Shown: one piece after another, positions 5,842-20,477 of the stretch
Layout of the letters: every line of letters begins with the position of its first letter
Position numbering within the stretch: position 1 is the stretch's first letter
IMG/VR virus record: IMGVR_UViG_2634166512_000003
Strand: one strand, 5' to 3'
Length of the DNA stretch: 47,118 nt
Origin: a virus
Taxonomy: Duplodnaviria > Heunggongvirae > Uroviricota > Caudoviricetes
Position numbers and translations under genes: made by a program
Notes under the pieces: generated by a model
Seen by the model: the letters and a program-made list of their open reading frames with translations, nothing else
Told to the model about the DNA's origin: nothing
The model's database searches: none

Positions 5842-6689
5842 AGCGACTCCTTGGTGATGTATACTCGGGACCGATCAGCGAATATTGATCAGCTTCCATA
5901 GCGTCAGTGTCGTTGGTCTTTCCTCATCACAAGTTTGGTCACTTGTGATAAATCCGAATGGTTTGGTCGCCGTTCGGGGTAACTGGCCCGCCTTGTGCGG
6001 GTCTTTTGCTATCTAAAGGGTGCCGGTTACGTTTCCGGCGTCGTTATGTTTCCATCACGACCGTACGGGGCTGGTCTTTCCTGTTTTGAGCTGGTCAGGC
6101 TCATGGTCAACGCTGGTCAGGCGTGGTACTTCCTCCGGTCTTTCCCTGGTGTCACGCTGCGGGTTTGGCCTCTCCTGTTGGGGACTCAGGCACAGCGATA
6201 AAACCTGGCTGTGTGAAAAAATGGCCCATCGTGCGGACTGGGCAAAGACTAAACACAGCAAATTGATGATGGGCGCCCGGAATCGAACCGGGTAACGGGC
6301 AGGGAGTTCCCGTTAAACACCTGTTCACCACAACCGGGAGCGCACTCCGCCATTTCAAAATTTAACGACAAAGCTCAAAGTTGAGTCGATGAAGTGCGCT
6401 CTCGTGTTGTAGCCAGGACTCTTCCCTGGTGGTCACACCGTATCGCCTTGATGGTGAATCAATCGCTCATACCTGGCTGTGGCTTGCACATTCCGGCTAC
6501 CTGCTATGGAGACAACGCGTTAAGGCTCCGCTTCCATCCAGACCGCTTCGACACATGTGCCATATGCCGGCGAAGTCTTTCCCTCTGTCATCGTGTTGGC
6601 GCCGACGCGCAAAATTTGATGCCGTCTTTCCGGCTGTCAGAACGTGTTTCTGAACAACTGCCGCTGGGTAAGCGTTGTTGATGAAAGTG

Positions 6690-6750
6690 ACTTTACAATT
6701 TGTATTTGTAATGGTCAACGTATTTTTAAAAAATAATTTGTAGTTAGGGG
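6690..6750. promoter_or_regulatory. putative leftward operator/promoter region (OL/PL-like) downstream of repressor gene, with ATTTGTA-type repeats
   Basis: acaatttgtatttgtaatgg and aataatttgtagtt share the ATTTGTA(A/T)T motif also found in the repressor/cro intergenic region. Confidence 0.3.
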
Positions 6751-6837
6751 CAAAAAAATATTCACTGTGTAAAGGTGTTTTTGTGTTAGGGGGAAAGTTG
6801 CATGCCAGCAGCGGCTGGCCTGAAAATTTGAACTGAA

Positions 6838-9645: not shown

Positions 9646-10071
9646 ATGGAATTACAGGACTGGCGAAAAGAACCTCGTAAAAACTATTCGAATGAATTCA
9701 AACTTCGTATGGTGGAACTGGCATCACAACCTGGAGCTTGTGTTGCACAGATTGCACGTGAAAATGGCGTCAATGATAATGTTATTTTCAAATGGCTCAG
9801 GCTCTGGCAGAACGAAGGGCGTGTTTCGCGGCGTCTTCCGGTAACGACCTCTTCTGACACTGGCGTTGAATTATTACCTGTAGAAATAACGCCGGATGAG
9901 CAGAAAGAACCTGTGGCGGCCATTGCGCCGTCTTTATCCACTTCCACTCAGACCAGAGTCAGTGCCAGTTCCTGCAAGGTGGAATTCCGTCACGGTAACA
10001 TGACGCTGGAAAATCCATCGCCAGAGCTGCTCACAGTGTTGATCCGTGAACTGACCGGGAGGGGAAGATGA
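9646..10071 (+). CDS. IS66 family accessory protein Orf1 (TnpA-like)
   Basis: 141-aa HTH-containing protein, first of the IS66 three-gene set. Confidence 0.8.
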   Translation: MELQDWRKEPRKNYSNEFKLRMVELASQPGACVAQIARENGVNDNVIFKWLRLWQNEGRVSRRLPVTTSSDTGVELLPVEITPDEQKEPVAAIAPSLSTSTQTRVSASSCKVEFRHGNMTLENPSPELLTVLIRELTGRGR

Positions 10072-10418
10072 TCTCACTCCCATCAGGTACCCGTATCTGG
10101 CTCGTTGCCGGCGTTACCGATATGCGTAAATCCTTCAACGGACTGGGAGAACAGGTACAACATGTGCTGAATGATAATCCCTTCTCCGGTCACCTGTTTA
10201 TCTTCCGTGGCCGACGGGGTGACACCGTCAAAATTCTTTGGGCTGATGCTGATGGTCTGTGCCTGTTCACCAAACGCCTGGAGGAAGGCCAGTTTATCTG
10301 GCCTGCGGTACGTGACGGCAAGGTATCCATTACCCGCTCGCAACTGGCAATGCTCCTCGATAAGCTGGACTGGCGTCAGCCAAAAACATCCAGCCGTAAC
10401 TCACTGACAATGTTGTAA
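10068..10418 (+). CDS. IS66 family accessory protein Orf2 (TnpB-like)
   Basis: 116-aa protein overlapping Orf1 stop (ATGA), characteristic IS66 arrangement. Confidence 0.8.
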   Translation: MISLPSGTRIWLVAGVTDMRKSFNGLGEQVQHVLNDNPFSGHLFIFRGRRGDTVKILWADADGLCLFTKRLEEGQFIWPAVRDGKVSITRSQLAMLLDKLDWRQPKTSSRNSLTML

Positions 10419-10448
10419 AAAACTCCTGACCGCATTATAAAAACGGTC

Positions 10449-12062
10449 ATGAGTCAGAAATACCTCATTCGCATCGCAGAGCTGGAAAGGTTGCTCTCTG
10501 AGCAGGCTGAAGCCCTCCGTCAGAAAGACCAGCAACTGAGTCTGGTTGAAGAGACGGAAGCCTTCCTGCGCTCTGCACTGACACGTGCCGAAGAAAAGAT
10601 CGAAGAAGATGAACGGGAAATAGAACATCTGCGGGCTCAGATAGAAAAACTGCGCCGGATGCTGTTCGGTACCCGTTCTGAAAAACTGCGTCGTGAAGTT
10701 GAACTGGCTGAGGCTCTGCTGAAACAACGTGAACAGGACAGCGATCGTTACAGTGGGCGGGAAGACGATCCTCAGGTTCCCCGCCAGTTGCGACAGTCGC
10801 GCCATCGTCGTCCGTTACCGGCACACCTTCCCCGTGAAATACACCGCCTGGAGCCAGAAGAAAGCTGTTGCCCGGAGTGTGGCGGTGAGCTGGATTATCT
10901 GGGGGAAGTCAGCGCTGAACAGCTGGAACTGGTGAGCAGTGCCCTGAAAGTGATCCGCACAGAACGGGTAAAAAAAGCCTGTACAAAATGTGACTGTATT
11001 GTTGAAGCACCGGCGCCGTCCCGCCCGATAGAGCGTGGTATCGCGGGCCCCGGATTACTTGCCCGCGTGTTAACGGGAAAATACTGCGAACATCTGCCAC
11101 TGTATCGTCAGAGTGAAATCTTTGCCCGCCAGGGTGTCGAACTGACCTGGGCCTTACTCTCCAACTGGGTTGACGCGTGCTGCCAGTTAATGACACCGGT
11201 GAATGATGCCCTGTACCGTTATGTAATGAACACCCGCAAGGTTCACACTGATGACACACCGGTAAAGGTACTGGCACCGGGTCAGAAAAAGGCGAAAACA
11301 GGGCGTATCTGGACGTATGTCCGGGATGATCGCAATGTGGGTTCGTCATCTCCTCCAGCGGTCTGGTTCGCGTACTCGCCGAACCGGCAGGGGAAACACC
11401 CGGAGCAACACCTCCGCCCCTTCCGGGGTATCCTGCAGGCGGATGCGTTCACAGGTTACGACAGGTTGTTCAGTGCAGAACGTGAAGGTGGTACACTGAC
11501 AGAAGTTGCGTGCTGGGCCCATGCCCGGCGAAAAATCCACGATGTATACATCAGCAGCAAAAGTGCGACGGCAGAAGAAGCCCTGAAGCGAATCAGTGAA
11601 CTGTACGCCATCGAGGATGAAATACGGGGATTACCGGAGTCAGAGCGTCTTGCCGTCAGGCAGCAGCGAAGCAAAGTGTTACTGACGTCGCTGCATGAAT
11701 GGATGGTGGAGAAGAATGGTACGCTGTCGAAAAAATCCAGACTGGGCGAAGCGTTCAGCTATGTACTGAATCAGTGGGATGCCCTCTGTTATTACAGTGA
11801 TGACGGTCTGGCGGAGGCGGATAATAATGCTGCGGAAAGAGCGCTTCGTGCAGTCTGTCTCGGAAAGAAAAACTTTATGTTCTTTGGCAGCGATCACGGC
11901 GGCGAGCGTGGAGCACTGTTGTACGGGCTGATCGGCACCTGCCGTCTGAACGGTATCGATCCGGAAGCGTATCTGCGCCATATCCTGAGCGTACTGCCGG
12001 AATGGCCTTCCAACCGAGTTGACGAACTCCTGCCATGGAACGTAGTACTCACCAATAAATAA
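10449..12062 (+). CDS. IS66 family transposase
   Basis: 537-aa protein with N-terminal coiled-coil/leucine zipper, CxxC zinc motif and DDE-type core as recalled for IS66 transposases. Confidence 0.85.
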   Translation: MSQKYLIRIAELERLLSEQAEALRQKDQQLSLVEETEAFLRSALTRAEEKIEEDEREIEHLRAQIEKLRRMLFGTRSEKLRREVELAEALLKQREQDSDRYSGREDDPQVPRQLRQSRHRRPLPAHLPREIHRLEPEESCCPECGGELDYLGEVSAEQLELVSSALKVIRTERVKKACTKCDCIVEAPAPSRPIERGIAGPGLLARVLTGKYCEHLPLYRQSEIFARQGVELTWALLSNWVDACCQLMTPVNDALYRYVMNTRKVHTDDTPVKVLAPGQKKAKTGRIWTYVRDDRNVGSSSPPAVWFAYSPNRQGKHPEQHLRPFRGILQADAFTGYDRLFSAEREGGTLTEVACWAHARRKIHDVYISSKSATAEEALKRISELYAIEDEIRGLPESERLAVRQQRSKVLLTSLHEWMVEKNGTLSKKSRLGEAFSYVLNQWDALCYYSDDGLAEADNNAAERALRAVCLGKKNFMFFGSDHGGERGALLYGLIGTCRLNGIDPEAYLRHILSVLPEWPSNRVDELLPWNVVLTNK

Positions 12063-15744: not shown

Positions 15745-15782
15745 CAGGTTGAATGTTTGGCGCGGTTATACTCTATTTGCGC

Positions 15783-15852
15783 TTAAAAAGGTATTTAGTC
15801 ACAACCAGCACGAGGCCGAATACTCTGTCAAAGTACCGCCCATGTAAAACTG
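15783..15852. repeat. copy A of about 70-bp imperfect direct repeat (non-coding relic of a gene 3' end)
   Basis: Near-identical to 19384..19454 with a few mismatches and one indel. Confidence 0.8.
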
Positions 15853-15921
15853 TTACGTATGTACTTGATGACTAAGCTGGCACCAGGTTAACACCAGGCG
15901 CCAGCTTGAAGGAAACTTCAG

Positions 15922-16845
15922 TTATTGGTTTCTGAGGAAAGCGATTCTTGAAAGGGTCATTTGCGTCTGGCAGTCGACCATTTTCTTGACTTCAGCATCT
16001 GTTCCCTGCATTGAAACTTTACCGCACATAGCATCCTTAGTTTTGATCCACTGACGCTGAGAAGGCAGCAACTCTTTTTTCTTCGCCGGCGTTAACCTGC
16101 CCCAGACTGTATTCAAATCAGAGTCAGCATTCGCAAATGCCATTCGGGACTGATCAAGGCTTTCAGCTTTTTGCGGCTGAAGTTGTGCCTGCCTCTCTAT
16201 TTGCTTCTCCGCCTCATACCTGGCCTGTTCCTGTGCCCTGAGTTGCACCTGTTGTTCCGCTTCAATTTGACTCTGTTGGGCATCCTTAGCCTGCTGGATT
16301 TTCTGCTGCTCAACGATCGGGTTGATAATGGAAAGCGATGTCAGTAAAGCGGCGCCCACTGATATCGGATTATCAGAAGAGGTTTTTACAAAAACGTTTT
16401 TCTGATCGTCGGTCGCCTGCACGGTGTAGGTGATACGTTTTGAAAAGGCGTTTGCGTTGTTCTCCAAAAACAGATTTTCCATTTGCTTATCGAGATTACG
16501 ATTAAAATTCTTTCGGTAAGCATCAGAAAGCTGGATGTACTCGTTCGCAGGTAGAGTCATCGTCACGGTCCCTTCACAAGTTTTCATTGTGCTGCCCGTG
16601 TCACTTGATGTTGTGGAGATTTCAGAGACGGCTAGTTTGATCTTGTCCAGTGTGCTTCGTTTGGTCTGATTAGTGACATCAGGGTATTTATCGACCTGTT
16701 CAGAGAGTCCTTCATAAGCAGATTTTTTTAATAAATCCATGAGAGCTGATTGGGTCATTTCCGAAGAACAACCGATCTCATCTTTTTTGTTATCACAGCC
16801 TGTAAGGGCAATGGCGAGTAAGAGTACTGAGTATTTTAATCTCAT
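15922..16845 (-). CDS. lipoprotein with Gln-rich coiled-coil region and C-terminal DUF1311/LprI-like domain
   Basis: Signal peptide with lipobox LTGC; C-terminal QRQWIKTKDAMC...CQTQM motif resembling DUF1311 as recalled; minus-strand orientation opposite to flanking phage genes. Confidence 0.55.
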   Translation of the reverse strand: MRLKYSVLLLAIALTGCDNKKDEIGCSSEMTQSALMDLLKKSAYEGLSEQVDKYPDVTNQTKRSTLDKIKLAVSEISTTSSDTGSTMKTCEGTVTMTLPANEYIQLSDAYRKNFNRNLDKQMENLFLENNANAFSKRITYTVQATDDQKNVFVKTSSDNPISVGAALLTSLSIINPIVEQQKIQQAKDAQQSQIEAEQQVQLRAQEQARYEAEKQIERQAQLQPQKAESLDQSRMAFANADSDLNTVWGRLTPAKKKELLPSQRQWIKTKDAMCGKVSMQGTDAEVKKMVDCQTQMTLSRIAFLRNQ

Positions 16846-17471
16846 GAATTCCCTTTAGAGTAAGGATTGGTTTTTAAGACGCGGTCTGTAATCAGTTCCG
16901 AGAGCTACAGTAAACAACGCTGAGCACTGAACGCATCACAGGCAAGGTAAAAGGTGATATCGGCAAAGGCTGTGAAACCTTTAATTCAACAGATGGGAAC
17001 GGTATGCACAGGATCCTGTAACGACGCTCCCAAAACCGGAAACCTGTAAGGCATGTTTTCGCTGCTGAACTTAATATACGAACCTGCACTATCATGAACA
17101 TATTTTATATCGTTATACCCCGAGTGATTGTGCCCGGCAATGGATAGTGTCCTGGAGGAACTATTTCTACTGTAAAAGGTAGACATTTAATTTCAGTGTG
17201 GAATTATTCCCTGCTGTTAATAACCATGGCTCTATATGGCACCGAGCGGACTAGTTAACTTGCCTGAAAGCCGCTATGAGTGAGGAGCGAATATTGGCAC
17301 GATAGGATACCTGAACCATTTTTTGGACATGCGCTAAAAGCGAATGATTAGTTTTATCGGAATATTTACAGTATACTTACAAGGCAAGCTTGGCGTACCG
17401 TCTTGGGCGAGATTGCTTAAATTATTTTGTGGATATATCATTCAAACAAAAGATAATAAAATGAGGTTGTT

Positions 17472-17669
17472 ATGTCATATATTCGCGTAGAGAAAGATGG
17501 CCTTCAGTATGAAGCAGAATACTTCCGTGAAGAGGATATGGTCACAGTCTTTGGGGTTAGAGGAGGGCATTCCAGCGTGGTTCTAAATGGAATGACAGAA
17601 GTCGCGGCTGCTCGTACTGCGTTACGAAATCTTATTAGAGAAAATCAGGTTGATCCTCTAACTGATTAA
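17472..17669 (+). CDS. hypothetical small protein (65 aa)
   Basis: ORF in AT-rich island upstream of the T5orf172-like gene. Confidence 0.35.
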   Translation: MSYIRVEKDGLQYEAEYFREEDMVTVFGVRGGHSSVVLNGMTEVAAARTALRNLIRENQVDPLTD

Positions 17670-17873
17670 AAATAAGCCATCTTAACTGAGAGCATATTTT
17701 GATATAATTTAGATTAAATCTATTTTGAAGGTTAGTTTGGGATGAGAAGATTACATCAAAACCGTTATTACTAGCAATAAGTTGTGTAAATCAAATAATA
17801 CATAATCAGGTGGTAATATATACTAAGCGTAGTAAAGTTTTTATATATTCCTGTAACTTTGTGAGAAACTTCC

Positions 17874-18539
17874 ATGAAAGCCGACAACTTAAGAATTATA
17901 GAGAATGGCAAATATGTTTTCGATATGTTCTTGGATACTGGTGAATTTTACTATACAAGTCATGCCTTTGACACGAGAGAAGATGCAAAAAGCTGGATGG
18001 AAGAATGGCAGATTTGGGCAAATAATGTATCGAGTGGGAAAGTAAGTAGTATTTATTATATTTTACAAGTGCCTGATACTTGGGCCGGTTCTTCAGATAA
18101 AAATAACCCTTACTCGGGACTTTATGTGAAAATAGGGCGTTCCAATAATGTGCTAAAAAGGTTGTCTAACCTGCAGACAGGTGCATTTGGTCAATTAATA
18201 TTACACGCTTTGGAACCAGGTGGTTCAGAAAAAGAAAACTATCTTCATGAAAAATTTAGCAACGAAAGACGTCAAGGTGAATGGTTTGTTTGTACTAAGG
18301 AACTTACCAAGCATATATTTACAACATGGTTTAAAAACAAAATGCTCCCACCAGAACATCAAATAAAAATAATGCAGCTCGCAGAAAGAACAGGTATTTA
18401 TTCGCATGTTCATACACTAATGGGGGGGAAGCCAGACTTAGTAAACCCATCTATTAGTGAACCTTGGGAATGCGAAAAATATGTTTTGGTTGATATGATT
18501 TATAGCTCTTTAGCAAAGCAAGTTAATCATAAAAAATAA
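17874..18539 (+). CDS. T5orf172/MUG113-type (GIY-YIG superfamily) domain protein with uncharacterised N-terminal domain
   Basis: Motif GLYVKIGRSNNVLKRLSNLQTG...LHEKFSNERRQGEWF matches the recalled T5orf172 consensus (YVKIG...R...L..TG...LH..F...R..GEWF); AT-rich codon usage. Confidence 0.7.
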   Translation: MKADNLRIIENGKYVFDMFLDTGEFYYTSHAFDTREDAKSWMEEWQIWANNVSSGKVSSIYYILQVPDTWAGSSDKNNPYSGLYVKIGRSNNVLKRLSNLQTGAFGQLILHALEPGGSEKENYLHEKFSNERRQGEWFVCTKELTKHIFTTWFKNKMLPPEHQIKIMQLAERTGIYSHVHTLMGGKPDLVNPSISEPWECEKYVLVDMIYSSLAKQVNHKK

Positions 18540-18664
18540 AGTGTTACATTTTAACTATACAATTATTGATTCACTAATGAAGAGGTGATTTAGACGTATG
18601 AAGTTTTAATAAGCTCCAAGAATATTTTGTCATACATGGGTTAAAGAGTTATATAATAATATCT

Positions 18665-18722
18665 GCTTCTGGAACACAGCAGACAAGCACCTGCAGATAA
18701 AGGTCTGCTGAGAGCGAGAAGC
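18665..18722 (+). other. nested inverted-repeat element (possible structured RNA) in intergenic gap
   Basis: GCTTCT...AGAAGC outer stem enclosing CAGCAGAC...GTCTGCTG inner 8-bp stem with 18-nt loop. Confidence 0.3.
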
Positions 18723-18859
18723 GGATCATACGTTGGAAGTTGTTTAGGCAAATACGTTATAAACGTATTTGATTAAATTTACTTGGATCATAGTCTTCAA
18801 TAACGCTTTATTATATTGTTTTTCATGCAGCAAACAGGTTCACAGGTAGGTAATAAGCT

Positions 18860-19264
18860 ATGAGTGGATGGAAAGAGCCTTTTACATTAGCAGAACAGAT
18901 ACAATTAGCATTAAATTTAGGTTATGAGGCTGTACCAGATGAAGAGGCATATACTGGGGCATACTTCATTAAAGGTGGTAAGAAGTGGATCTTTAACATC
19001 ATCGGTCTCAAAAAGACATTGAATATATCTTCAGATGATGAACTAAGAGGGCAGGATTATGATGTTGATATGTATTTCGAAATTCGCCAAAATTGGGCAC
19101 AATACCAAGATATGATCTTTGGAAGCGAAGATATCACTCCTTCACCTAAAAATGAACTTACTTCAATTTACCATGACCTGCAGGTAACGGATGAACCCAG
19201 GGAAATGGTGTATCTTTCTGATGGGATGTGGCTGGCTCCCAACGGACGAATTGTACAACGATAG
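18860..19264 (+). CDS. hypothetical protein (134 aa), possible partner of T5orf172-like protein
   Basis: Co-oriented ORF downstream in the same AT-rich island. Confidence 0.45.
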   Translation: MSGWKEPFTLAEQIQLALNLGYEAVPDEEAYTGAYFIKGGKKWIFNIIGLKKTLNISSDDELRGQDYDVDMYFEIRQNWAQYQDMIFGSEDITPSPKNELTSIYHDLQVTDEPREMVYLSDGMWLAPNGRIVQR

Positions 19265-19373
19265 CACTCGAACACACTCAGTAATCGTCTATAAGGCCAG
19301 CACTTGTTACTTGGTCATTTGGGGTTGCTGGTCTTCTCCATTAAATCGACTAAAGTCTGTTCCATAGAGAGAG

Positions 19374-19979
19374 TTACTTGCGTTTAAAAAGGTATTTTGT
19401 CACGACCAGCACGAGGCCGAATACCTCTGTCAAAGTACCGCCCATGTACAACTGTAGTGTTAAATCCTCAAATTCCAGCTTACCTGCGCCGTCGGCAATA
19501 AATACACCATTCATTATCAGAAGTTGGCAAGCAAGGATAATCAGGAACCATTTCCCGTATCGTTTTTTTAGAGCGATTTCTGCTTCAAAATCTTTGTTGT
19601 TGAGTTGTTTGCGCTCATGCTCGGTATCAAGTGAATTCACCTGTTTCACAGATGTGAACTCGGTCAAGATTTTACTCTCAGTACGGGTGACTTGTTGAGA
19701 GGGTGTAACAGTTGGAATTCTTTTGCTAGACGCAGCTACAGCCATTTTGCGAGCTTCGGCAGCTCTTTTTCTGGCTATTCCGCGAATACGGACAGCCGTT
19801 TTTTTGGGGGCGTGCGAAACCTTTGGCTGAGGTGAAGTTTCGTCAGGAGACTGAACCGGGGTTTCATCGTCCCCCGGCTCAACCTCTTCTGCTAACTGAC
19901 GGTGTAGGTTGAGGGAATCCTTCAGTCGGCGTGCAACTTCCTGTTTGAAACGGCTGTTAAAATCGTCATCCGATGGCAT
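19374..19979 (-). CDS. Lys/Arg-rich protein with two C-terminal transmembrane helices
   Basis: Hydrophobic segments WFLIILACQLLIMNGVFIA and LTEVFGLVLVVTKYLF near the C-terminus; start 10 nt after ImmA-like stop; 3' end coincides with repeat copy B. Confidence 0.55.
   Translation of the reverse strand: MPSDDDFNSRFKQEVARRLKDSLNLHRQLAEEVEPGDDETPVQSPDETSPQPKVSHAPKKTAVRIRGIARKRAAEARKMAVAASSKRIPTVTPSQQVTRTESKILTEFTSVKQVNSLDTEHERKQLNNKDFEAEIALKKRYGKWFLIILACQLLIMNGVFIADGAGKLEFEDLTLQLYMGGTLTEVFGLVLVVTKYLFKRK
19384..19454. repeat. copy B of about 70-bp direct repeat (coding 3' end of the 19374..19979 gene)
   Basis: Near-identical to 15783..15852. Confidence 0.8.
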
Positions 19980-19988
19980 TCTAAAGCG

Positions 19989-20477
19989 TTACCCCAACCT
20001 CAAGTTCTTTAAACGATAAGTCATCGCATCGTCAGATACGCCAAAATAATGCGCCATTATATAACTTGGTTGGCCGTCAGCGTGCAGTTTTCTGACCTCA
20101 TCAACCGGCATCAGAAGTTCTGCTGCGAACTTGTTCGCAAAAATTTCATCAGGATGCGTTCCGGCGCTTGCGGTTTCGCCACGTAAATCAACGTACTCAT
20201 ATTCATCACTATGCGATGCTTGCCGGGCGATGTAATGCCCCAACTCATGCCCACATGAAAAACGTTGACGAACTTTGTTGTCATCACTGTTTAGAAAGAT
20301 CGCTGGATCTTGATCTTTTTGTTTAATCAGTGCGCCAGAAACTTTCCCAGGAAGATCGGTAATAAAAACATCTAATCCCATGTCGTGAGCAATTTTCGCT
20401 GGATCAACAGGGAAACCACGCCCGCACCAGAACGTGTCCAGCACTCGCCGGGCGTGCTCTCTTGGGTTGGTAGCCAT
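19989..20477 (-). CDS. ImmA/IrrE-family metallopeptidase
   Basis: HELGHY zinc-binding HEXXH motif in a 162-aa protein; GGAG RBS upstream. Confidence 0.7.
   Translation of the reverse strand: MATNPREHARRVLDTFWCGRGFPVDPAKIAHDMGLDVFITDLPGKVSGALIKQKDQDPAIFLNSDDNKVRQRFSCGHELGHYIARQASHSDEYEYVDLRGETASAGTHPDEIFANKFAAELLMPVDEVRKLHADGQPSYIMAHYFGVSDDAMTYRLKNLRLG

Follow-up and report, generated by a model that had tools for sequence, protein, structure and literature searches.

A candidate single-gene YegP–T5orf172 nuclease and a recurrent hairpin element in a cargo slot of an Escherichia coli lambdoid prophage

PD-T4-3 has been characterised experimentally as CMoRE, a single-protein type IV restriction enzyme of the GIY-YIG type (PMC12923530). 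For T5orf172 domains, nuclease activity is described as requiring a conserved glutamate in the account of the Odn work cited by PMC10448857. Domains of the YegP/UPF0339 fold (DUF1508) homodimerise as single copies, as a preprint states with reference to PDB 6Q2Z (bioRxiv 10.1101/2024.11.21.623966). The YegP homodimer has a PC4/Whirly-like topology; paired DUF1508 domains resemble the PC4/Whirly single-stranded nucleic-acid binders and occupy the sensor position of Menshen NsnA, where they are proposed to act as sensors (PMC12065111), and yegP-like genes also lie downstream of the CapK/CapS immune regulators (PMC13373217). Here we describe a protein predicted to combine a YegP-like domain with a T5orf172 core, encoded in a lambdoid prophage of Escherichia coli (IMG/VR record IMGVR_UViG_2634166512_000003; the whole stretch of 47,118 nucleotides is called the window below), which is 100% identical to E. 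coli RM9387 (NZ_CP009104.1). Exactly where the initial annotation had placed them, in 17472-19264, three open reading frames (ORFs) on the plus strand encode proteins of 65 amino acids (aa) (orf65, 17472-17669), 221 aa (17874-18539) and 134 aa (orf134, 18860-19264). The evidence leans modestly towards two unrelated, independently mobile cassettes, delimited by hairpins, in a prophage slot, with the 221-aa protein acting as a single-gene anti-phage or anti-mobile-element nuclease.

The 221-aa protein is composed of a YegP/UPF0339-like N-terminal domain (residues 1-57), a T5orf172/MUG113 (GIY-YIG) core (58-141) and a basic, helical C-terminal region (142-221). Matches to MUG113 (PF13455, E = 6.5e-10, 39.9 bits against a cut-off of 22.3) and T5orf172 (PF10544, E = 4.4e-7, 30.8 bits against a cut-off of 20) lie above the Pfam gathering thresholds and cover residues 74-152, so the profile hidden Markov model (HMM) check bore out the domain proposed initially; both matches are also precomputed in 33/33 full-length homologues. 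AlphaFold modelling from the family alignment gave a confident structure, with a predicted local distance difference test (pLDDT) score of 89.9 and a predicted template modelling (pTM) score of 0.85, and it displays the three-stranded sheet and flanking helices of the GIY-YIG alpha/beta fold. The initial annotation had left an N-terminal domain of about 75 aa unrecognised; that region indeed has no Pfam match, but its modelled fold resembles the solved UPF0339 structures, and on the strength of the model we assign it to the YegP/UPF0339-like fold. Residues 142-221, with an isoelectric point (pI) of 9.1, have no recognisable relative. Across 21 homologues at 38-90% identity, 39 residues are invariant, including Y61/Y62, K86-I87-G88, R96, E121, H125 and E136-W137-F138. 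By analogy, these fit what is expected of an active GIY-YIG-type site, with a tyrosine in strand 1, an arginine in helix 1 and a metal-binding glutamate. A profile search of the PDB sequences revealed no solved structure related by sequence to the family, and a residue-level alignment to I-TevI, made with an approximate I-TevI sequence, was uninformative.

Searched against 5.8 billion proteins, the 221-aa protein has relatives in 34 clusters; leaving aside a few truncated entries, these measure 211-242 aa and can be aligned over their whole length at 38-90% identity. When 1.84 billion representatives were searched with the family profile, about 12 matched at E ≤ 1e-30, followed by core-only matches at profile positions ~84-150. 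Delimited in this way by sequence, the family is tiny, sharply bounded and kept over its full length, while its spread across phyla is patchy. We compared 21 loci carrying relatives, from Enterobacterales, Vibrio, Moritella, Pseudoalteromonas, Thiohalophilus, cyanobacteria, Dehalococcoidia, Acidobacteria and Flavobacterium, and searched them for partners by tblastn and all-against-all clustering of the neighbouring ORFs. Homologues at ≤57% identity had no conserved neighbour, and across the 21 loci there was no conserved partner gene beside the effector of the kind that marks toxin–antitoxin or obligate multi-gene systems. The V. vulnificus and V. pacinii homologues each sit, with no other gene, between a pair of attC-type repeats in a chromosomal integron array, which we regard as direct evidence that the gene works alone. 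Locus L045 holds 14-16 attC-type repeats, with the homologue at 6001-6702 between the copies at 5909-6033 and 6701-6831, and in L025 the copies lie at 5913-5982 and 6710-6779. The V. penaeicida homologue (L010) also stands among attC-type repeats, on a contig partly masked by runs of N. The copy in the window is without attC-like core sites.

Phage genomes are not the usual home of the homologues, most of which are found on bacterial chromosomes, in integron cassettes and in defence islands; tblastn of the 221-aa protein against 50,697 phage records gave core-level matches only, and megablast of the whole cluster against the same records matched nothing. The Citrobacter copy has Shango SngABC (E down to 8e-279) on one side and PDC-S31 with a Mokosh-like helicase on the other, the Enterobacter copy adjoins AbiV, and an E. 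cloacae homologue at 76% identity adjoins PARIS AriA/AriB. Further afield, the Trichormus homologue is found beside an AAA_15/21 ATPase and that of Flavobacterium beside a D12 methyltransferase and a PLD nuclease. This genomic context suggests an anti-phage function for the 221-aa protein. In a Colwellia-like metagenome-assembled genome (L049 1-7100), a homologue lies next to smpB, where an integrated element that resembles a filamentous phage (Rep_trans, RstB, coat and Zot) ends, which adds another type of mobile-element carrier for the T5orf172 family.

In the prophage, the three genes occupy a slot whose content varies. Homology with the backbones of ST131-type prophages (L002/L003) and of CFSAN061769 (L004) stops at 17246 and resumes at 19352, which defines the cargo as 17247-19351, a segment with a GC content of about 0.36-0.38. 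The 500-bp windows across 17501-19000 (0.354, 0.364 and 0.338) are the lowest of the 47-kb window (mean 0.487), in agreement with the AT-richness noted initially. Only 18/5,426 complete E. coli genomes carry the cluster, and in sibling prophages that share its flanks the slot holds replacement cargo, not an empty site; the suggestion that this is variable cargo was therefore well founded. In CFSAN061769, which shares the left LprI flank, a full-length PD-T4-3/CMoRE gene sits in the slot (L004 10115-10921, PADLOC E = 5.7e-138), and because a sibling prophage holds this system there, the slot is a real defence hotspot. Thus the defence-type cargo module envisaged in the initial annotation survives as a hotspot with variable cargo, but not as a three-gene system. 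The CFSAN061769 slot as a whole (L004 8107-13611) encodes PD-T4-3, a 411-aa protein with an HNH motif and three unannotated proteins of 186, 459 and 220 aa. ST131-type prophages, which are widespread and have the same LprI and phrog_5346 plus ImmA/IrrE flanks, carry a different 232-aa gene (L002 4339-5037, WP_000536231.1), whose sole match is a weak one to PADLOC RTasTM (DRT-associated, E = 1.8e-5); its product is another defence candidate.

The cargo of the window is made up of two cassettes. Cassette A (17273..18725, plus strand) contains orf65, the T5orf172 gene and a 3' hairpin, and is 84-85% identical at the DNA level to copies in Enterobacter (L007 5350-6844) and Citrobacter (L006 5456-6708 and 7921-8063), the latter split by an IS3 element. 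Judged from this DNA homology, cassette A moves as a single unit among enterics. Cassette B (18754..19347, plus strand) consists of orf134 with ~100 bp upstream and ~83 bp downstream. Copies of this 590-bp module are found in Proteus (L051 5907-6485) and Citrobacter braakii (L054 5900-6486) at 81-84% DNA identity, both without a T5orf172 gene.

The boundaries of cassette A coincide with a hairpin element of ~85 nt, which we refer to as the junction element. A strong imperfect hairpin at 18661-18726 (dG -29.3 kcal/mol, z -5.3) marks the border: similarity to the versions of cassette A in Citrobacter and Enterobacter breaks off exactly at its 3' base. An alignment of ten copies taken from different contexts gives a homologous two-tier hairpin, and a covariance model (R1) built from them finds two copies only in the 47-kb window, which together bracket cassette A: a diverged copy 1 (17216..17301, plus strand, 64.6 bits, E = 7.7e-18) and copy 2 at the 3' end of the cassette (18649..18735, plus strand, 85.2 bits, E = 2.4e-24). 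The four sibling prophages hardly differ as far as ...TATGGCACCGAG (window 17245), inside copy 1, and diverge by cargo lineage beyond it (alignment A6). The breakpoint between backbone and cargo, at 17245/6, therefore lies within the element, as do the cargo breakpoints of three of the sibling prophages, and RM9387 and ST131 each have their own version of its 3' half.

Copies found by R1 outside its seed set also fall at cargo junctions in other loci. They lie on both sides of the Citrobacter cassette A (L006 5308-5394/7987-8073), the left one directly after Shango SngC, at the same left slot junction of the ST131 prophage (L002 3522-3609) and after the FRG gene of Providencia (L027 7511-7596). 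CFSAN061769 has three copies (L004 11024-11104/12732-12811/13924-14010), of which the one between PD-T4-3 and the next gene is non-seed and the other two belong to the seed; within that slot, the 459-aa and 220-aa genes are bordered by junction elements, and the 459-aa gene is parted from PD-T4-3 in the same way. In Proteus (L051 6543-6624/7979-8063), a seed copy directly follows the orf134 homologue and a non-seed copy follows the next gene. Downstream of the seed copy after Lamassu in MS 115-1 there are two non-seed copies, and in AR_0119 two non-seed copies and one seed copy, ~750 bp apart, divide single small genes (L057 and L059 have three copies each, L057 3701-3787/4490-4578/5192-5277 and L059 4497-4583/6479-6565/8097-8183). 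Copies within one locus are always co-oriented. By BLAST, ~900/5,426 E. coli genomes have 1-4 intergenic copies each, and copies occur on 225 plasmids from Klebsiella, Pantoea, Enterobacter and other genera. In phage 899, which is P2-like, two hypothetical genes situated between those for tail-fibre assembly and sheath are separated by the element, in what we take to be the Z/fun defence hotspot.

We rejected the element as an attC site, an ERIC/REP repeat or an Rfam family: it has no R''/R' core motifs and gave no Rfam match at E ≤ 1; a literature search for the motif returned nothing relevant. The junction element is previously undescribed and recurs at accessory-gene junctions across Enterobacterales. 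Probably, it is a mobile hairpin of the terminator type that also acts as a recombination anchor for cargo swaps between prophages, islands and plasmids. A bolder proposal, which we put forward only tentatively and consider rather unlikely, is that it forms the recombination site of an undescribed integron-like cassette exchange in Enterobacterales, without attC cores or a linked integrase, which shuffles one- and two-gene accessory and defence cassettes including a new single-gene YegP-T5orf172 defence nuclease. Such an exchange might be driven by phage Rad52-type recombinases or another enzyme, and it would link lambdoid prophage slots, the P2 Z/fun hotspot, chromosomal defence islands and plasmids.

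As a defence nuclease, the 221-aa protein would use its YegP-like domain to dimerise, to recognise some feature of the invader's nucleic acid or to do both; cleavage would fall to the GIY-YIG core, and the basic C-terminal region would make contact with DNA. A dimer formed through the YegP-like domain would join two GIY-YIG sites, with one active centre each, and could couple cutting to recognition.

Several observations weigh against this reading. On the protein side, the YegP assignment is one of fold only, with no match to PF07411 (YegP/UPF0339, DUF1508) at E ≤ 0.1; the PADLOC PDC-S57 match is marginal (E = 0.0033, 15 bits) and covers residues 83-157, the generic nuclease core; and the PADLOC PD-T4-3 profile (PDLC04031) did not match at E ≤ 0.1. 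On the genomic side, several distant homologues are located beside the housekeeping genes UvrB, PspA and HAD hydrolase, which means that the association with defence is not universal, and phage T5orf172 genes often encode selfish homing endonucleases or regulators that arose by domestication (PMC10448857). On expression, promoter and terminator scans gave counts not above the shuffled expectation. As for the hairpins, the consensus of the junction element has 16 base pairs with one clearly compensatory, so that its conservation is mainly at the sequence level; and on plasmids and in AR_0119 its neighbours are ordinary accessory genes (oxidoreductase, GNAT, DinB, DJ-1), indicating that it marks accessory-gene junctions generally rather than defence genes specifically. 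We regard the family as a candidate defence family on the grounds of context.

The main rival account casts the 221-aa gene as selfish, a free-standing gene for a homing endonuclease or what remains of one, that would spread by cutting cognate sites without it and bring no defence benefit to host or prophage. T5orf172 proteins are the dominant putative homing endonucleases of ICP1, T5-like and other phages, where they are found at genetic-exchange boundaries (PMC10448857), and the 221-aa gene likewise stands at a mosaic boundary within an AT-rich insertion and belongs to a horizontally spread family. However, the characterised phage enzymes pair T5orf172 with Zn-finger CapR, DUF723 or DUF4397 domains and lie near essential genes (PMC10448857). 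The 221-aa protein matched none of these domains in Pfam at E ≤ 0.1 and its sequence has no CxxC...CxC motif, and its gene occupies an accessory slot between LprI and phrog_5346, not the vicinity of essential phage genes. The mostly bacterial distribution of the homologues also speaks against homing. Moreover, since the slot shows replacement rather than clean presence or absence, mobility is better explained by recombination, through attC sites or through junction elements and flanks. Taken together, homing is an unlikely explanation, and we retain the single-gene nuclease as the preferred one.

We also considered a two-gene module made up of orf65 and the 221-aa nuclease, in which orf65 would be a regulator, an inhibitor, an antitoxin-like partner or a sensor adaptor for varied effectors (T5orf172, FRG/PDC-S15, Lamassu). 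The orf65 protein is acidic (pI 4.8), is made up of four beta-strands and a C-terminal helix, shows high conservation and gives a confident model (pLDDT 94), with no recognisable relative; like orf134, it matched nothing in Pfam, PHROG, PADLOC or NCBIfam, as anticipated in the initial annotation, and the NCBIfam search was blank for the 221-aa protein too. Its relatives form a separate small family restricted to Enterobacterales, at 63-98% identity. In favour of a module, orf65 and the nuclease gene moved together as a 1.45-kb unit into the prophage, the Shango island and the AbiV islet, where the Citrobacter and Enterobacter 221-aa proteins are ~90% identical to that of the window; in Providencia, orf65 precedes an FRG/PDC-S15 gene, a candidate effector, together with Lamassu, at a spacing similar to that between orf65 and the 221-aa gene; and in several loci it follows Lamassu LmuB by ~39 bp. 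Against it, orf65 accompanies the 221-aa gene only in L005-L007 among the 21 loci; homologues at 76% identity (E. cloacae) and below are without orf65, some being single-gene integron cassettes; and in CP4-44-like islands orf65 is found with opposite-strand or unrelated neighbours. The independent distributions of the two genes weaken the module, and we doubt that it exists.

orf65 is found without a T5orf172 gene directly after Lamassu (LmuA 1.6e-133, LmuB 2.2e-167) and, in CP4-44-like islands, beside PD-Lambda-3_A. Overall, the family recurs by at least five defence systems, in Lamassu, FRG/PDC-S15, PD-Lambda-3, Shango and AbiV contexts (L026, L027-29, L030-34, L035-39), which have in common a 300-bp mini-module with orf65 (window 17405-17706). 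orf65 is a small, promiscuous gene that travels along with many defence cassettes, and it is not a dedicated partner of the nuclease. Profile comparison showed that it is unrelated to the N-terminal domain of the nuclease, and the idea of a free copy of that domain was rejected (hhalign probability 0.4%); weak sequence matches to CsrA (E 0.14-0.9) had no backing from the fold search. orf65 and the 221-aa ORF share a reading frame, and phrog_8130 was matched at 99-333 of 434 profile positions only; however, a split gene was rejected because the 204-bp spacer contains many stop codons and the homologues are full-length (about 215-240 aa), and the two ORFs are separate genes.

It is improbable that the 221-aa protein has been domesticated into a DNA-binding regulator of phage or host genes that does not cleave, like PLE CapR or the domain-shuffled Bro/KilA type, and that it serves the prophage life cycle. 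Repressors have arisen by domestication of T5orf172 domains, CapR being one (PMC8096241), and an ORF6N anti-repressor gene neighbours the 221-aa gene in the early region, but the catalytic-type residues are invariant across phyla, the family is mostly found outside phages and the gene is rare cargo rather than core.

The acidic orf134 protein (pI 4.4) belongs to a separate, small family whose members lie at prophage ends: the Proteus homologue is at a prophage end beside an ApeA-HEPN/PDC-S58 gene, and that of Citrobacter braakii is at the ogr end of a P2-like prophage. Among the 21 loci, orf134 co-occurs with the 221-aa gene only in the L005 prophage lineage (E. coli and E. whittamii), and it was never found beside the 221-aa gene outside that lineage, including in the Citrobacter and Enterobacter copies of cassette A; orf134 is an independent prophage-end moron unrelated to the 221-aa gene. 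The three-component anti-phage or exclusion system suggested in the initial annotation is therefore largely refuted by the gene distributions and very improbable: the three genes are co-linear on one strand of an AT-rich segment and co-inherited at ≥99.2% identity in the 18 E. coli genomes and E. whittamii, but each has its own distribution, a junction element divides orf134 from cassette A, orf134 has a module of its own, and the intergenic gaps are long (204 and 320 bp).

The prophage is integrated beside tRNA-Ser(cga) (892-981), the lambdoid setting recognised at the outset, and the cluster has replication genes on one side and the Q antiterminator on the other. To the left of the slot lies a gene for an LprI-family (lysozyme-inhibitor-like) lipoprotein (15922..16845, minus strand; Pfam LprI 5.4e-8, phrog_5094), a part of the backbone common to L002-L005. 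To the right, the conserved backbone resumes with a phrog_5346 gene (201 aa, 19374-19979, minus strand) and a gene for an ImmA/IrrE (CapP-like) metalloprotease (19989-20477, minus strand; PADLOC capP E = 2.4e-25). This pair directly abuts the cargo slot, and no adjacent helix-turn-helix partner was seen. An 81-bp direct repeat (15774-15853 and 19375-19455, 92.6% identical), which duplicates the 3' end of the phrog_5346 gene, brackets the LprI gene and the cargo slot, and suggests that the whole LprI-plus-cargo block was inserted or exchanged at the repeat. CRISPR spacers from annotated arrays of other E. coli match the 5' end of the LprI gene (~16810-16853, 93% over 44 nt), and a spacer match, again from other E. 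coli, covers the ImmA/IrrE gene (~20237-20271, 100% over 35 nt). Elsewhere in the prophage, an IS66-family element (tnpA, tnpB and an ISEc23-like transposase) is inserted at ~9646-12062 between a replication-initiator-like gene and the DnaB helicase gene, and the helicase is 430 aa long against 469 aa in the sibling prophage L004, suggesting that the replication module may be disrupted.

If the preferred reading is correct, the 221-aa protein would represent a compact 25-kDa single-gene nuclease defence with an unusual YegP-like sensor, and would give the enigmatic YegP/UPF0339 fold a testable immune role. The slot offers a natural experiment, in which one backbone carries PD-T4-3, cassette A or other cargo with the breakpoints inside a conserved hairpin. 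The junction element is the most novel outcome of the analysis. Were it a recombination anchor, it would help to explain how small defence genes move between hotspots without dedicated mobility genes, and it could serve as a search handle for new cargo genes.

Integron cassettes are the closest parallel to the organisation of cassettes A and B: in both cases, one- or two-gene units are parted by a conserved, co-oriented, imperfectly palindromic element, and the same cassette is found in unrelated backbones. The junction element differs from attC in that it has no RYYYAAC/GTTRRRY core sites and no integron integrase nearby, and the genes between its copies lie on either strand. It is also found between metabolic accessory genes on plasmids, and no recombinase was identified. 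The 'boundary/linker sequences' of lambdoid phage mosaicism reportedly described by Clark et al. 2001 and Juhala et al. 2000 bear a likeness to it.

With respect to its catalytic domain, the 221-aa protein belongs to the same family (PF10544/PF13455) as the T5orf172 proteins of ICP1 and PLE, Odn and CapR (PMC10448857, PMC8263062, PMC8096241), in which a modular nuclease is combined with a specificity domain and acts in mobile-element conflicts. It differs from them by its YegP-like N-terminus and unique C-terminus, in place of CapR, DUF723, DUF4397 or RepA-N DNA-binding domains, and by its settings, which are bacterial islands, integron cassettes and the accessory slot of a temperate prophage rather than essential-gene neighbourhoods in lytic phages. 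YegP/DUF1508 is also the N-terminal module of other immune proteins, namely Menshen NsnA and the Bub ubiquitin-like proteins (PMC12065111, bioRxiv 10.1101/2024.11.21.623966); these carry a tandem pair, whereas the 221-aa protein has a single YegP-like copy that the PF07411 HMM does not detect. In the literature searched, no fusion of YegP with a T5orf172 nuclease was found. A close counterpart is PD-T4-3/CMoRE, likewise a single-gene nuclease of the GIY-YIG superfamily carried as prophage cargo, in the same slot downstream of LprI in a sibling prophage, and likewise a nuclease domain fused to a putative sensing domain. The two have no sequence-family relation (PADLOC, E ≤ 0.1), and their cores are of different subfamilies, T5orf172/MUG113 in the 221-aa protein and the 'GIYxY-YIG' type in CMoRE. 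The sensor-like domain is N-terminal in the 221-aa protein, with the nuclease core central (58-141), but C-terminal in CMoRE. In this comparison, the 221-aa nuclease candidate stands as an undescribed architectural variant of the single-protein nuclease defences.

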